Below, piece after piece: positions 937-22,797 of a DNA stretch of 64,000 nucleotides (position 1 is the stretch's first letter; every line of letters starts with the position of its first letter). Made by a program: the position numbers and the translations under genes. Source of the DNA: Escherichia coli (GTDB taxonomy: Bacteria; Pseudomonadota; Gammaproteobacteria; Enterobacterales; Enterobacteriaceae); the NCBI RefSeq assembly GCF_009931435.1, contig NZ_CP043414.1; one strand, 5' to 3'. Under the pieces are notes generated by a model. The model saw nothing but the letters and a program-made list of their open reading frames with translations. It ran no database searches and was not told the origin of the DNA.

Positions 937-2334
937 ATGAAAATGGTCTCACGTATTACCGCGATCGGCCTGGCTGGCGTCGCGATTTGCTATTTAGGGT
1001 TATCTGGTTATGTGTGGTACCACGATAATAAACGCAGTAAACAGGCCGATGTTCAGGCATCTGCTGTCAGTGAAAATAATCAGGTTTTAGGTTTTCTTCG
1101 CGAAAAAGGATGCGACTATTGTCATACGCCTTCGGCAGAATTACCCGCCTATTATTATATTCCTGGCGCGAAACAGTTGATGGATTACGACATTAAGCTT
1201 GGATATAAATCTTTTAACCTCGAGGCCGTGCGTGCGGCTCTGTTGGCAGATAAACCCGTTTCGCAAAGCGATCTGAATAAGATTGAATGGGTGATGCAGT
1301 ATGAAACTATGCCGCCAACGCGTTACACCGCGCTACACTGGGCGGGTAAGGTGAGTGATGAAGAGCGGGCGGAAATACTTGCCTGGATTGCAAAACAGCG
1401 CGCGGAATATTACGCCAGTAATGATACTGCTCCGGAGCATCGCAATGAACCGGTGCAGCCTATTCCGCAAAAACTGCCTACCGATGCGCAAAAAGTGGCG
1501 TTGGGTTTTACGCTGTATCATGATCCCCGTTTATCGGCTGATAGCACCATTTCATGTGCACATTGCCATGCGTTAAATGCGGGTGGCGTTGATGGCAGAA
1601 AAACGTCGATTGGTGTTGGTGGTGCCGTTGGACCGATTAACGCACCGACGGTATTTAACTCAGTATTTAACGTTGAGCAGTTCTGGGATGGTCGTGCGGC
1701 AACATTGCAGGATCAGGCGGGTGGACCGCCGTTGAACCCGATTGAAATGGCGTCGAAATCCTGGGACGAAATTATTGCTAAGCTGGAAAAAGATCCGCAG
1801 CTTAAAGCGCAGTTCCTCGAAGTCTATCCGCAAGGTTTCAGTGGCGAAAATATTACTGATGCTATTGCTGAATTTGAGAAAACATTAATTACGCCGGATT
1901 CCCCATTTGATAAATGGTTGCGTGGAGATGAGAATGCGCTGACGGCGCAACAGAAAAAAGGCTATCAATTATTTAAAGATAATAAATGTGCAACTTGTCA
2001 TGGTGGTATTATTCTCGGCGGACGTTCTTTCGAGCCGTTGGGGCTGAAAAAAGACTTTAACTTTGGGGAAATTACGGCGGCGGATATTGGTCGTATGAAT
2101 GTTACTAAAGAAGAGCGTGATAAATTGCGTCAGAAAGTACCCGGTTTACGTAACGTTGCTTTAACGGCACCGTACTTCCATCGCGGTGACGTGCCGACGC
2201 TGGACGGGGCGGTAAAACTGATGCTGCGCTATCAGGTAGGCAAAGAGCTGCCGCAGGAAGATGTGGATGATATCGTAGCTTTCCTGCACAGTCTGAACGG
2301 GGTATATACGCCGTATATGCAGGATAAACAATAA
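937..2334 (+). CDS. yhjA: Cytochrome c peroxidase, three heme c sites
   Basis: 465 aa ORF with an N-terminal membrane anchor and three CxxCH motifs (CDYCH, CAHCH, CATCH); position between treF and gadA matches E. coli synteny. Confidence 0.9.
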   Translation: MKMVSRITAIGLAGVAICYLGLSGYVWYHDNKRSKQADVQASAVSENNQVLGFLREKGCDYCHTPSAELPAYYYIPGAKQLMDYDIKLGYKSFNLEAVRAALLADKPVSQSDLNKIEWVMQYETMPPTRYTALHWAGKVSDEERAEILAWIAKQRAEYYASNDTAPEHRNEPVQPIPQKLPTDAQKVALGFTLYHDPRLSADSTISCAHCHALNAGGVDGRKTSIGVGGAVGPINAPTVFNSVFNVEQFWDGRAATLQDQAGGPPLNPIEMASKSWDEIIAKLEKDPQLKAQFLEVYPQGFSGENITDAIAEFEKTLITPDSPFDKWLRGDENALTAQQKKGYQLFKDNKCATCHGGIILGGRSFEPLGLKKDFNFGEITAADIGRMNVTKEERDKLRQKVPGLRNVALTAPYFHRGDVPTLDGAVKLMLRYQVGKELPQEDVDDIVAFLHSLNGVYTPYMQDKQ

Positions 2335-19216: not shown

Positions 19217-20131
19217 TTATTGCGGCCAAAGCTGCTGGTGTAAAGACTCAACGACATCAGCAATACGCGGACCCATTCCCAGAATCAGGTTTTGATCAAC
19301 GGTGATAATGCGCTGGTTTTTCCATGCGGCAGTGTGGGTAATTCCGGCAATAGAACGTAGCCGGTTAATATCGCCATCGACCATTTGTGAGGTTACGACA
19401 ATCACTTCTGGATTAGCCGCAATCAGTGATTCTGCACTGTAGCTTTTGTACTGCTGGTGGGTTGCGACGTTTTCTGCTCCGGCAAGCGAAAGAATGGCGT
19501 CCGCGACGCTGCCTTTACCGGCAACCTGTGGCGCACTTCCGCCTGCGGAGAGAATAAACATGGCTTTAACCGGGGCTTTTTTGGCCGCCACGTTTTGCTG
19601 TACTCGCTCCAGGCGTTGGTTGATCTGTGTCACCAGCGCCTCGCCTTGTTCAGGAACCTGTAGCGTTTTTGCCAGTTGGCGAATGTTGGCGTACATCTGC
19701 TCAAGGGTGGCAGGCACACGCGGCAGGGTGACGACGTTGACTTTCTGCGCTCGTAGTTGGTCGAGCACAATTTGTGGCCCGGCATCCTGCCAGGTAATTA
19801 CGCTATCCGGGCGAAGTGACAAAATGCCTTCGCTGCTGAGTTGTTTCCAGTAGCCAATATGCGGCAGTTTGGCGGTTTCTGGTGGATAAGATGTCGTTTC
19901 ATCGACACCAACCACGCGTTCGCCAGCGCCCATCGCGTAGATTAGCTCCGTCAGCGATCCTCCTGCGACCACGATACGTTCGGCAGCCGTTACGCTAAAA
20001 GCCCAGCTAAGAGCCAGTACTGCCGTAAACAATTTTTTTCGTTTTACCGCGGTCTTCGCGGCAGAGGCCACGGCTGAAATACATAACGTCAGTGGGGAAA
20101 AAAGAAACGGCCTGGTGGTGATCCTTGGCAT
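19217..20131 (-). CDS. chuT: Periplasmic hemin-binding protein ChuT
   Basis: Periplasmic binding protein; I place the start at MPRITTRPFLF... (304 aa) because the longer call would cover a Fur-box-like site. Confidence 0.75.
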   Translation of the reverse strand: MPRITTRPFLFSPLTLCISAVASAAKTAVKRKKLFTAVLALSWAFSVTAAERIVVAGGSLTELIYAMGAGERVVGVDETTSYPPETAKLPHIGYWKQLSSEGILSLRPDSVITWQDAGPQIVLDQLRAQKVNVVTLPRVPATLEQMYANIRQLAKTLQVPEQGEALVTQINQRLERVQQNVAAKKAPVKAMFILSAGGSAPQVAGKGSVADAILSLAGAENVATHQQYKSYSAESLIAANPEVIVVTSQMVDGDINRLRSIAGITHTAAWKNQRIITVDQNLILGMGPRIADVVESLHQQLWPQ

Positions 20132-20156
20132 AATATGAGAACTCTTATCAAATTGA

Positions 20157-20177
20157 GAATGATCATGATTATCATTT
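20157..20177. promoter_or_regulatory. Fur-box-like operator upstream of chuT
   Basis: gaatgatcatgattatcatt resembles the Fur consensus GATAATGATAATCATTATC; lies in the chuT-chuA divergent region. Confidence 0.5.
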
Positions 20178-20814
20178 GAGTTATATATGAAATACAACCG
20201 TCGATTCAATACGCAAGGCGTTACAAGCGTATTTATTTTTGATTTTTATCAAGATACTTCGTCAGCTAACGTTCTTGTTACCGACTAAATTTCAGCGCGG
20301 GAAAAAGCTGAGAACCCAGAGATATCGCGGCTTGCAGAGCAAAGAGAAGAGAAAATTATCACTGTTAACGACAAAGTTTAGTGATGAGGTCATGGGGGAA
20401 TAACCATAAAAACAAAGTGGTTTCCAGGGCGCAGGATAGGTTTCATAACCCCCTGTTTATTGTGTTAATGGCGGTTAAAAAAAAGCTTGATCATAAAAAA
20501 TTGATCGATAATAATTCTCATTATCACGTTCGCGCTTAACAAAACACGACCATATGGATAACAAAACCATAGCATTTGCAAGGGATAACGCACAGCGCTC
20601 TTCACTCCTGATGGGGCATATCGTTTTGCCTGATAAAGAGGGCGTGCTTTTGCGTATTTGCCGAGATACCAGGCAATTTCATGGGATATAAACGCCTGTA
20701 AACTCACCCGGCGAATATTATCGCTCTGAATTTTAAATAAATTTATTTCTCGCAAGCCACCCCGGTATTAACCCAGGCAGCCAGCATTTTTTATTTTCCT
20801 CATGGAGAATCGCT

Positions 20815-22797
20815 ATGTCACGTCCGCAATTTACCTCGTTGCGTTTGAGTTTGTTGGCTTTGGCTGTTTCTGCCACCTTGCCAACGTTTGCTTTTGCTAC
20901 TGAAACCATGACCGTTACGGCAACGGGGAATGCCCGTAGTTCCTTCGAAGCGCCTATGATGGTCAGCGTCATCGACACTTCCGCTCCTGAAAATCAAACG
21001 GCTACTTCAGCCACCGATCTGCTGCGTCATGTTCCTGGAATTACTCTTGATGGTACCGGACGAACCAACGGTCAGGATGTAAATATGCGTGGCTATGATC
21101 ATCGCGGCGTGCTGGTTCTTGTCGATGGTGTTCGCCAGGGAACGGATACCGGACACCTGAATGGTACTTTTCTCGATCCGGCGCTGATCAAGCGTGTTGA
21201 GATTGTTCGCGGACCTTCAGCATTACTGTATGGCAGTGGCGCGCTGGGTGGGGTGATCTCCTACGATACGGTCGATGCAAAAGATTTATTGCAGGAAGGA
21301 CAAAGTAGTGGTTTTCGTGTCTTTGGTACTGGTGGCACGGGGGACCATAGCCTGGGATTAGGCGCGAGCGCGTTTGGGCGAACTGAAAATCTGGATGGTA
21401 TTGTGGCCTGGTCCAGTCGCGATCGGGGTGATTTACGCCAGAGCAATGGTGAAACCGCGCCGAATGACGAGTCCATTAATAACATGCTGGCGAAAGGGAC
21501 CTGGCAAATTGATTCAGCCCAGTCTCTGAGCGGATTAGTGCGTTATTACAACAACGACGCGCGTGAACCAAAAAATCCGCAGACCGTTGAGGCTTCTGAA
21601 AACAGCAACCCGATGGTTGATCGTTCAACAATTCAACGCGATGCGCAGCTTTCTTATAAACTCGCCCCGCAGGGCAACGACTGGTTAAATGCAGATGCAA
21701 AAATTTACTGGTCGGAAGTCCGTATTAATGCGCAAAACACGGGGAGTTCCGGCGAGTATCGTGAACAGATAACAAAAGGAGCCAGGCTGGAGAACCGTTC
21801 CACTCTATTTGCCGACAGTTTCGCTTCTCACTTACTGACATATGGCGGTGAGTATTATCGTCAGGAACAACATCCGGGCGGCGCGACGACGGGCTTCCCG
21901 CAAGCAAAAATCGATTTTAGCTCCGGCTGGCTACAGGATGAGATCACCTTACGCGATCTGCCGATTACTCTGCTTGGCGGAACCCGCTATGACAGTTATC
22001 GCGGTAGCAGCGACGGCTACAAAGATGTTGATGCCGACAAATGGTCATCTCGTGCGGGGATGACTATCAACCCGACCAACTGGCTGATGTTATTTGGCTC
22101 ATATGCCCAGGCATTCCGCGCCCCGACGATGGGCGAAATGTATAACGATTCTAAGCACTTCTCGATTGGTCGCTTCTATACCAACTATTGGGTGCCAAAC
22201 CCGAACTTACGTCCGGAAACTAACGAAACTCAGGAGTACGGTTTTGGGCTGCGTTTTGATGACCTGATGTTGTCCAATGATGCCCTGGAATTTAAAGCCA
22301 GCTACTTTGATACCAAAGCGAAGGATTACATCTCCACGACTGTCGATTTCGCGGCGGCGACAACTATGTCGTATAACGTCCCGAACGCCAAAATCTGGGG
22401 CTGGGATGTGATGACGAAATATACCACTGATCTGTTTAGCCTTGATGTGGCCTATAACCGTACCCGCGGCAAAGACACCGATACCGGGGAATATATTTCC
22501 AGTATTAACCCGGATACCGTTACCAGCACCCTGAATATTCCGATCGCTCACAGTGGCTTCTCTGTTGGTTGGGTCGGTACGTTTGCCGATCGCTCAACAC
22601 ATATCAGCAGCAGTTACAGCAAACAACCTGGCTATGGTGTGAATGATTTCTACGTCAGTTATCAAGGGCAGCAGGCGCTCAAAGGTATGACCACTACTCT
22701 GGTATTGGGCAACGCCTTCGACAAAGAGTACTGGTCGCCGCAAGGCATCCCACAGGATGGTCGTAACGGAAAAATTTTCGTGAGTTATCAATGGTAA
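20815..22797 (+). CDS. chuA: TonB-dependent outer membrane heme/hemoglobin receptor ChuA
   Basis: 660 aa with signal peptide, plug and barrel domains, C-terminal aromatic residue (...VSYQW). Confidence 0.9.
   Translation: MSRPQFTSLRLSLLALAVSATLPTFAFATETMTVTATGNARSSFEAPMMVSVIDTSAPENQTATSATDLLRHVPGITLDGTGRTNGQDVNMRGYDHRGVLVLVDGVRQGTDTGHLNGTFLDPALIKRVEIVRGPSALLYGSGALGGVISYDTVDAKDLLQEGQSSGFRVFGTGGTGDHSLGLGASAFGRTENLDGIVAWSSRDRGDLRQSNGETAPNDESINNMLAKGTWQIDSAQSLSGLVRYYNNDAREPKNPQTVEASENSNPMVDRSTIQRDAQLSYKLAPQGNDWLNADAKIYWSEVRINAQNTGSSGEYREQITKGARLENRSTLFADSFASHLLTYGGEYYRQEQHPGGATTGFPQAKIDFSSGWLQDEITLRDLPITLLGGTRYDSYRGSSDGYKDVDADKWSSRAGMTINPTNWLMLFGSYAQAFRAPTMGEMYNDSKHFSIGRFYTNYWVPNPNLRPETNETQEYGFGLRFDDLMLSNDALEFKASYFDTKAKDYISTTVDFAAATTMSYNVPNAKIWGWDVMTKYTTDLFSLDVAYNRTRGKDTDTGEYISSINPDTVTSTLNIPIAHSGFSVGWVGTFADRSTHISSSYSKQPGYGVNDFYVSYQGQQALKGMTTTLVLGNAFDKEYWSPQGIPQDGRNGKIFVSYQW

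Follow-up and report, generated by a model that had tools for sequence, protein, structure and literature searches.

At which codon does the heme transporter gene chuT begin, and does the Fur operator at its 5' end lie within the coding sequence or ahead of it? In the 64,000-nucleotide stretch of Escherichia coli DNA analyzed here (the window), chuT (shuT) is divergent from chuA (660 aa), with chuS downstream of chuA and chuW downstream of chuT; the RefSeq gene names at the locus are shuT/chuT, chuA, and hutW. The longest open reading frame (ORF) for chuT runs on the minus strand from a TTG codon at 20209 to 19217 and encodes 330 aa, and an in-frame ATG at 20131 opens a 304-aa protein that begins with MPRITTRPFLF. 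A sequence-only reading of this DNA had preferred the ATG and had placed the operator inside the longest ORF call but outside the gene. Both points were borne out: RefSeq, the transcript mapping of Wei, Kouse & Murphy (2017), and the comparative pattern agree on ATG 20131, and the operator is contained in the 330-aa ORF but not in the 304-aa ORF. This finding is correct but already known. The same reading had expected an annotation correction and no new biology; the longest-ORF call is indeed corrected, whereas public annotation already uses 304 aa, and both the start and the Fur site are public (RefSeq; Wei et al., 2017). The minus-strand segment 20129–20209 very probably comprises the promoter, Fur operator, 42-nt leader, and start codon of chuT (Table 1).

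Table 1. Features at the 5' end of chuT/shuT (coordinates refer to the window)
Feature	Coordinates	Strand	Remarks
−35 hexamer TTGAAT	20204..20209	−	Begins with the TTG called as "start" of the 330-aa ORF; hexamer conserved in L008, L010, and L012
Likely −10 TATAAC (−12 to −7), 18-nt spacer	20180..20185	−	Inside the published active fragment 20235–20174; exact hexamer probable
Transcription start (+1), G	20173	−	5'-RACE in S. dysenteriae; identical leader here
Fur operator	20155..20173	both	16/19 to consensus, +1 to +19; invariant core 20157–20176
42-nt 5' UTR, single-hairpin RNA thermometer	20132..20173	−	Anti-SD AUUCU 20156–20160; SD AAGAG 20142–20146
Spurious 26-codon 5' extension of the longest ORF	20132..20209	−	Promoter, operator, and leader DNA; frame unconserved
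Start codon ATG of 304-aa ChuT/ShuT	20129..20131	−	RefSeq start; reporters of Wei et al. translated from ATG
chuT/shuT CDS	19217..20131	−	304 aa plus stop; heme ABC-transporter periplasmic binding protein
Lineage-specific N-terminal extension, codons 1–30, MPRITTRPFLFSPLTLCISAVASAAKTAVK	20042..20131	−	Not in the 274–279-aa homologs of other genera
Lost ancestral start site	20038..20041	−	CGA/AAA here versus CGA-AGTTCC-ATG-AAA in L012, a 9-nt difference
Ancestral signal-peptide segment R31KKLFTAVLALSWAFSVTA49	19985..20041	−	Aligns with the MKKL... signal peptides of homologs

The encoded protein matched PF01497 (Peripla_BP_2) with 119.6 bits against a cut-off of 27.5. Tyr94, which we take to be the heme ligand, fits the Y of HIGYW in the 304-aa form. 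All 256 residues of crystallized ShuT (2R7A) aligned with a single E/D substitution (E = 2.7e-162), and the crystallized construct starts at AAERIVV, which is residue 49 of the 304-aa form. The product would be a 304-aa pre-protein with a mature heme-binding domain from about residue 49–50, and chuT would be the first gene of a chuTWXY(UV) heme-utilization operon divergent from chuA. RefSeq/PGAP annotated a 915-nt gene from ATG 20131 in all three E. coli genomes inspected, which cover both allele classes (coordinates checked by alignment). The exact 304-aa protein is present in public collections as ShuT, and the 330-aa version of the window sequence was not found in public protein collections. 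Stray start calls gave 330 aa in one PGAP-annotated protein from a metagenome-assembled genome (MAG; P0012) and 271 aa in P0019.

For chuT, the start of transcription, the binding of Fur, and the function of the leader as a thermometer are known from the literature on an identical sequence, as the supplementary oligonucleotides of Wei et al. (2017) matched the window base for base over 20235–20129 (leader plus ATG, 20173–20129; promoter fragment, 20235–20174; F3, 20209–20189). In that work, 5'-RACE in Shigella dysenteriae showed that the shuT transcript begins 42 nt before the ATG, and RT-PCR gave a product with F2 but none with F3 or F4 (Wei et al., 2017; PMC5458455). The published 62-nt promoter fragment starts 26 nt before the promoter, and the promoter start at −36 therefore corresponds to position 20209 of the window. 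RNA polymerase would use the −35 hexamer TTGAAT and a −10 element around TATAAC and start at G 20173. A generic promoter scan missed the published promoter, as the −10 element lacks the final T; the scan's 9/12 call at 20159–20130, inside the leader, was regarded as noise, with three sites found against 2.3 expected.

The shuT leader alone gives both iron and temperature control, and its function as a thermometer was established with reporters at 25 versus 37°C, a U15A/U16C mutant, and RNase T1 probing; in these reporters, shuT's own ATG was placed ahead of a start-less gfp and was translated (Wei et al., 2017; PMC5458455). The transcribed 42 nt would form one weak hairpin in which the Shine-Dalgarno (SD) sequence AAGAG pairs with AUUCU, and melting of this hairpin near 37°C would allow initiation at ATG 20131. 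The minimum free energy (MFE) fold of the leader paired AUUCU (14–18) with AGAGU (29–33), including two G-C pairs, at −5.8 kcal/mol, and the U15A/U16C mutant was weaker in silico (−3.5 versus −5.8 kcal/mol). Compared with shuffled sequence, the hairpin had no extra stability (z = +0.14; 102 of 200 shuffles fold as well). Folding is thus unsupportive by itself, and it is the published experiments that carry the case for the thermometer. The inner SD/anti-SD stem was invariant in five lineages and therefore offered no scorable covariation; the outer stem differed among lineages, where predicted folds were weak (−1.3 to −5.0 kcal/mol; z, +0.1 to +1.4). The SD itself is weak and lies 10 nt from the ATG. 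An Rfam search of 19800–21000 returned no model for the shuT leader and recovered the chuA thermometer RF02597. A Hammerhead_HH9 match in the coding sequence (20003–20078), at 20 bits against a threshold of 52, was taken as chance.

A scan of species-representative genomes with the 20-nt operator core yielded only five loci. Two of these were diverged Escherichia lineages that could be used, another was an E. coli contig contaminating a "Collinsella" MAG, and the remaining two were chance matches. Comparative power was accordingly limited to four lineages, namely the window, L012, L010, and L008, which share the divergent architecture. The −35 and −10 elements, the operator core, the anti-SD/SD pair, and a nearby ATG were kept in all four, with the ATG 6–10 nt after the SD stem in all lineages, and the frame from ATG 20131 was open into the mature domain in each despite 9-nt and 33-nt indels.

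These data bear on the possibility that the true start is internal, at GTG 20071 (284 aa) or TTG 20032 (271 aa), so that the signal peptide would be short and conventional; this would make the leader 100–140 nt long, and the frame from ATG 20131 would be a fortuitous open stretch or a leader ORF. Homologs of other genera do begin with MKKL, aligned to R31KKL, and the near-neutral dN/dS of the N-terminal extension is what untranslated DNA would also show. Moreover, MASAAKTAVKRKKLFTAVLALSWAFSVTA before AE, as read from GTG 20071, resembles a textbook signal peptide, and 160 sequences in the databases start at TTG 20032 (cluster P0019; older O157 annotations). However, neither codon is preceded by an SD sequence; GTG 20071 is missing in L010 and L008, and TTG 20032 is CTG or CTT in L010, L012, and L008, whereas the SD and ATG module at 20131 occurs in every lineage, with the frame kept open by in-frame indels only. 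In addition, the context of ATG 20131 drove thermoregulated gfp translation (Wei et al., 2017), and a thermometer 60–100 nt before the real ribosome-binding site would not gate translation. We therefore consider an internal start improbable and retain ATG 20131. That the native protein, and not just a reporter, initiates there is what we infer from experiments in S. dysenteriae and reporter fusions; no report of N-terminal sequencing of native pre-ShuT was found. The ancestral ATG survives in the sister lineages L010 and L012, and codon 28 of the E. coli chuT-type allele is also ATG. Initiation at these codons might conceivably occur, but only in the alleles carrying them; the window carries neither.

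Far less probable is a genuine start at TTG 20209, which would place the Fur site within a 330-aa coding sequence. The frame is open from 20209 and is used by the MAG protein P0012, and intragenic Fur sites have been described in the literature for a few E. coli genes. Against this, the TTG belongs to the −35 hexamer, 36 nt ahead of the mapped transcription start, and is not transcribed: F3 begins exactly there and gave no cDNA product on the identical sequence. The TTG has no SD, and the 26 residues that it would add are hydrophilic and stand ahead of an already long pre-sequence. In L008 an in-frame TGA within the operator also interrupts the frame, and in L012 the frame is shifted. The sequence-only reading had named conservation of these 26 residues in homologs as the observation that would speak against ATG 20131; in the N-terminal alignment, they were conserved in no homolog. 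A 330-aa product is already refuted for aerobic, iron-poor growth, and the longer ORF is probably an accident, an open frame crossing regulatory DNA. The homolog comparison would, however, cast doubt on the first 30 residues of the 304-aa form as well, since these are unconserved outside the lineage; other evidence rescues them.

The Fur consensus GATAATGATAATCATTATC matched the operator with three mismatches on either strand, and a second, overlapping register at 20161–20179 (15/19) reached about −6. The interval first proposed for the operator, 20157–20177 (AAATGATAATCATGATCATTC, self-complementary at 16 of 21 positions), is the same element in a slightly shifted register: it is nearly coextensive with the invariant block AATGATAATCATGATCATTC (20157–20176), whereas both the best match and the published 19-mer occupy 20155–20173. 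The operator had also been assigned to the promoter, and it does lie upstream of the ATG, but at the transcription start and in the early leader rather than over the −35 and −10 elements. The S. dysenteriae shuT Fur site likewise spans +1 to +19 with three mismatches; Fur binding was demonstrated by EMSA, a fur deletion was analyzed, and a 5-nt operator truncation abolished regulation (Wei et al., 2017; PMC5458455). Its position, downstream of the −10 instead of over the −35, was called atypical by the authors (Wei et al., 2017; PMC5458455). With iron, Fur would bind at +1 to +19 (20173–20155), with a footprint probably covering −10-proximal bases, and bound Fur would block initiation or promoter escape.

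The sole other Fur site in the window (20507–20525) lies in the same intergenic region, toward chuA, and the AATGATAATCATGATCATTC block was unchanged across all diverged relatives, with the conserved core extending to −4. It is hardly credible that the palindrome is a chance match without a regulatory role: the intergenic region is AT-rich and three of 19 positions are off consensus, but the two sites in 64 kb amount to four strand-matches against 0.05 expected, a number equaled in none of 100 shuffles; the operator block is 89.5% identical to that of L008, with the 20-nt core invariant, versus 54–74% in adjoining DNA; the published EMSA, fur deletion, and operator truncation concern the identical sequence; and chuTWXYU is a direct member of the Fur ChIP-seq regulon in E. 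coli CFT073.

The 30 residues that follow ATG 20131 and precede the ancestral signal segment have their own history. The 9-nt stretch that includes the ancestral ATG is absent in E. coli and Shigella and is retained by two sister lineages. dN/dS was 0.57–0.78 in the extension, 0.07–0.31 in the signal segment, and 0.02–0.05 in the mature part. Mismatches in the extension were flat across codon positions (0.33/0.30/0.43), and the extension was always open, with indels of 9 and 33 nt. These observations largely show that the extension is nearly neutral and kept only open and in frame. It has likewise largely been shown that chuT was uncoupled from an upstream receptor gene and that the start of translation shifted upstream by about 30 codons, to an ATG gated by the thermometer. 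A forced MAFFT alignment had raised the idea that the E. coli extension derives from the 3' end of the ancestral upstream receptor gene; this was rejected, as blastn gave no match below E = 0.1, and 33, 974, 377, and 240 of 1000 shuffles scored as well when local alignments were tested. The resulting pre-sequence of the 304-aa form is unusual, with 48–49 residues and two hydrophobic stretches: the 30 extra residues carry the second hydrophobic stretch and an ASA/AK motif, and the signal segment ends in SVTA/AE. The accepted N-terminus of ChuT/ShuT is thus a young, barely constrained extension that arose when the gene gained its own promoter, which raises the question of how a two-segment pre-sequence of this length is exported.

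Upstream of the promoter, we also observed a candidate FNR site, TTGATAAAAATCAA, a perfect TTGAT-N4-ATCAA at 20239–20252 centered at −72.5 from the shuT transcription start (−73.5 in L008). Canonical class I FNR/CRP sites are centered near −61.5, −71.5, −82.5, and −92.5, and the candidate is one base off the canonical −71.5. The perfect consensus occurred twice in 64 kb against 0.14 expected, and the candidate was conserved in L001–L003, L010, L012, and L008, although flanking DNA is just 54% identical to L008. The published promoter fragment (20235–20174) leaves this site outside, and no report of an FNR site at the chuT promoter was found in the literature searched. If the site is true, FNR would co-activate the operon for anaerobic heme degradation (ChuW/ChuY), as a counterpart to the known repression of ChuS, the aerobic heme oxygenase, by FnrS, and the conserved box would tie anaerobic heme degradation to oxygen sensing. 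We suggest only tentatively that the chuT 5' end is a recently assembled, lineage-specific control cassette, to which the FNR part possibly adds oxygen control.

Since RefSeq already holds the correct start, and the 2017 paper covers operator, transcription start, and leader function, little is gained for the gene itself. The locus does serve as a caution that "longest ORF" calls take in promoters, and the circulating 330-aa and 271-aa versions would mislead predictions of signal peptides or operators.

Among known systems, the closest is the S. dysenteriae shuT element (Wei, Kouse & Murphy, 2017, MicrobiologyOpen 6:e00442, PMC5458455), which is identical to the window over at least 20235–20129 and has the same Fur site, hairpin, U15/U16 anti-SD, and 304-aa product; it is the same element in another host. 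The window differs from it in being an E. coli shuT-type allele with one E/D substitution (best genome match, E. coli at 99.6%), and direct experiments in E. coli comprise Fur ChIP-seq and RNA-seq only. The shuA/chuA promoter and FourU thermometer (Kouse et al., 2013; RF02597) share the intergenic region and the same logic of a Fur box with an SD-occluding thermometer; in the window, RF02597 lies at 20786–20817 (60.1 bits). For chuA, however, the Fur box overlaps the promoter, and the leader is about 300 nt long and carries the FourU hairpin at the 3' end, whereas chuT has a 42-nt leader with a single non-FourU hairpin, a Fur box at +1 to +19, and no Rfam model. Wei et al. assigned shuT to the class of the Synechocystis hsp17 thermometer (Kortmann et al., 2011), in which the whole short 5' UTR is one hairpin; the likeness is functional and architectural only, with no sequence homology.

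The hemT/hmuT-type genes of Citrobacter, Raoultella, Klebsiella, Kluyvera, and "E. alba" (274–279 aa) are orthologous in the mature domain (78–84% identity) and in the signal peptide from KKL on, and they have the radical-SAM gene chuW/hutW downstream, as in the window. These genes start with MKKL, 0–2 nt behind a same-strand gene for a 710–717-aa TonB-dependent receptor, and have no promoter, Fur box, or leader of their own. In contrast, chuT of the window is divergent from chuA, has its own promoter, operator, and thermometer, starts 30 codons upstream, and lacks the ancestral ATG.

The chu/shu heme-utilisation locus is present in the window (table). As the sequence-only reading had proposed, a Fur-box-like palindrome lies inside the longest chuT ORF: a scan of the 64-kb window found, at 20155-20173, matches to the Fur consensus on both strands, each with three mismatches. 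The sole other match in the 64 kb fell within the same intergenic region, towards chuA; 0.05 matches were expected, and 0/100 shuffles equalled the observed number. The interval originally proposed, 20157-20177, is the same element and coincides with a 20-nt block invariant across all relatives, although its register is shifted. The Fur operator inside the longest chuT ORF is thereby confirmed, and chuTWXYU is among the direct Fur targets identified by ChIP-seq in E. coli CFT073. The chuA side also carries a predicted sigma-70 promoter and a FourU thermometer; the implied chuA leader of about 290-300 nt agrees with the published length.

Features of the chuT-chuA region, in window coordinates
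Feature	Position	Strand	Details
chuA	20815-22797	+	transcribed rightward, as is chuS
chuT, then chuW and further genes		-	transcribed leftward
Longest chuT ORF	TTG 20209 (start)	-	330 aa
In-frame ATG of chuT	20131	-	304 aa, MPRITTRPFLF...
Leader plus ATG	20173-20129		oligonucleotide match (PMC5458455)
Active promoter fragment, 62 nt	20235-20174		oligonucleotide match (PMC5458455)
RT-PCR primer F2	20159-20137		cDNA product obtained; oligonucleotide match (PMC5458455)
RT-PCR primer F3	20209-20189		without cDNA product; oligonucleotide match (PMC5458455)
Candidate FNR site TTGATAAAAATCAA	20239-20252		perfect consensus TTGAT-N4-ATCAA; centre -72.5 from mapped chuT/shuT transcription start
Predicted sigma-70 promoter	20487-20515	+	overlapped by second Fur box
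Second Fur box	20507-20525	+	2 mismatches
shuA/chuA FourU thermometer	20786-20817	+	Rfam RF02597, 60.1 bits; ends at chuA ATG (20815)

In S. dysenteriae, 5'-RACE placed the shuT transcription start 42 nt 5' of the start codon (Wei, Kouse & Murphy 2017, PMC5458455). The same study reported a Fur site at +1 to +19 with three mismatches and Fur binding by EMSA, showed that iron regulation was abolished once the first five bases of the site were removed, and found that the 42-nt leader by itself is a thermometer. Because every supplementary oligonucleotide of that paper matches the window perfectly, the published features could be mapped onto it exactly. Primer F3 starts at the TTG from which the 330-aa ORF is read. 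The figures given in the paper (62 - 26 = 36) put the first base of the promoter at -36, or window 20209, so what looks like a start codon in the long ORF is in fact the TTG that opens the -35 hexamer TTGAAT. The reporters carried a start-less gfp behind shuT's own ATG, indicating that this ATG initiates in vivo. The earlier placement of the operator in the promoter held in part: it lies outside the 304-aa coding sequence, but on the transcription start and early leader rather than over -35/-10, a position termed unusual by the authors of that study (PMC5458455). Folding of the window leader reproduced the published hairpin, with SD AGAGU opposite anti-SD AUUCU and two G-C pairs; U15/U16 are located in the stem, and the published U15A/U16C mutant gave a weaker fold in silico. 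The operator DNA doubles as an RNA thermometer, and an operator outside a coding sequence that begins at ATG 20131 is supported.

In all three genomes inspected, RefSeq/PGAP has a shuT or chuT gene of 915 nt that begins at the base corresponding to window 20131; these genomes represent both allele classes (95-99% and about 91% identity). Public collections include the exact 304-aa protein; the 330-aa version of the window sequence was not found there. Other public start calls comprise one MAG-derived 330-aa call and one cluster of 271-aa calls. The start at ATG 20131 is thus borne out by RefSeq and by the published shuT mapping (PMC5458455), whereas its presentation as an annotation correction is not, since public annotation already gives 304 aa and none needs correcting. 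Both the element and its correct annotation were already on record. E. coli chuT sequences also occur in MAGs named Bacteroides heparinolyticus (P0012, the sole 330-aa call) and Collinsella sp. (L014, 98.7% identical to the window); both are probably binning contaminants.

By RefSeq name, E. coli alleles fall into shuT (95-99% identical to the window) and chuT (about 91%) classes. A chuT-type allele (L002) has an ATG at window GCG 20048-20050, codon 28, giving MVKRKKLF..., an SD of AAGGG (AAGAG in the window, 20143) and a different leader MFE fold; because of these differences, start usage and thermoregulation could differ between the classes.

ChuT is a Peripla_BP_2 binding protein, and crystallised S. 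dysenteriae ShuT (2R7A) aligned with the window protein over 256/256 residues with 1 substitution. The 2R7A construct opens with AAERIVV, which begins at residue 75 when counted from TTG 20209 and at residue 49 when counted from ATG 20131, so the disputed N-terminus is entirely pre-sequence. This 48-49-residue pre-sequence contains hydrophobic segments at residues 8-24 (ending ASA/AK) and 34-49 (ending VTA/AE), divided by KTAVKRKK, and is thus an unusual, bipartite leader. These two hydrophobic stretches count against ATG 20131 as the start, as do the near-neutral evolution of codons 1-30 (dN/dS 0.57-0.78, compared with 0.07-0.31 in the ancestral signal peptide and 0.02-0.05 in the mature domain) and their codon-position mismatches against L008, a diverged lineage with the same divergent architecture (0.33/0.30/0.43, versus 0.08/0.05/0.52 in the mature domain). 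However, no lineage has lost the SD/anti-SD pairing or the ATG 6-10 nt past the stem, and reading from this ATG stays open in each, with indels of 9 and 33 nt only; the candidate alternatives, GTG 20071 and TTG 20032, are unconserved and have no SD in front of them. Moreover, the ancestral ATG and the codon-28 ATG of chuT-type alleles are both missing from the window allele, and the context of ATG 20131 drives thermoregulated translation (PMC5458455). ATG 20131 is very probably the start codon; selection acts to keep this start and an unbroken frame, rather than the sequence of the peptide. A Hammerhead_HH9 match in the coding region (20003-20078, minus strand; E = 0.044) was judged to be chance, as its 20.3 bits fall below the gathering threshold of 52.

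Upstream of the chuT promoter, we hypothesize an FNR site. The window holds 2 perfect FNR-consensus matches versus 0.14 expected, and the one at chuT is kept in each of the five lineages, even though its surroundings are just 54% identical to L008. The other (816-829), an informal positive control for the pattern, lies about 110 nt 5' of ORF 937-2334 (+), a 465-aa MauG/di-heme cytochrome c peroxidase-like gene that we take to be probably yhjA/ccp, a known FNR-regulated gene. ChuW and ChuY, which degrade heme anaerobically, are products of the chuT operon. The literature searched contained no report of the chuT site; it describes just the action of the sRNA FnrS on chuS and another FNR site, weak and predicted, in the vicinity of chuA. 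The candidate lies outside the shuT promoter fragment used in the published work. The FNR box and the lineage-specific N-terminal extension are modest leads.

In the homolog alignment, the extra 26 residues of the 330-aa ORF were conserved in no homolog, which leaves the shorter form proposed earlier unrefuted; the long frame meets a TGA within the operator in L008 and is shifted in L012. The divergent architecture is common to L012 (88% identical) and L010 (86%), both labelled E. coli, and to L008 (about 75%). L012 and L010 retain the ancestral ATG AAA AAA CTG and carry, in the same frame, ATGATG right after the SD; a 9-nt stretch that includes the ancestral ATG is missing from E. coli and Shigella, and L008 has CAG in place of this ATG plus an in-frame 33-nt insertion. 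Derivation of the extension from the 3' end of the ancestral receptor gene, considered after a forced alignment, was rejected, as BLAST and shuffle tests gave no significant similarity.

The nearest homologs outside E. coli and Shigella (Citrobacter, Raoultella, Klebsiella, Kluyvera, Dryocola and "E. alba"; 274-279 aa, 78-84% identity) begin MKKL, aligned with R31-K-K-L of the 304-aa form. In Citrobacter, Raoultella, Kluyvera, Klebsiella and "E. alba", the receptor (710-717 aa), T and W genes lie on one strand, with T 0-2 nt 3' of the TonB-dependent receptor gene and without its own promoter, whereas in Escherichia (window 19217-22797) chuA (660 aa)-chuS is divergent from chuT-W. This comparison marks the E. 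coli chuT 5' end as a rearrangement junction: everything from the promoter to codon 30, with the operator, leader and ATG between them, is lineage-specific, and the receptor length difference between genera suggests that the receptor was replaced, not just inverted.
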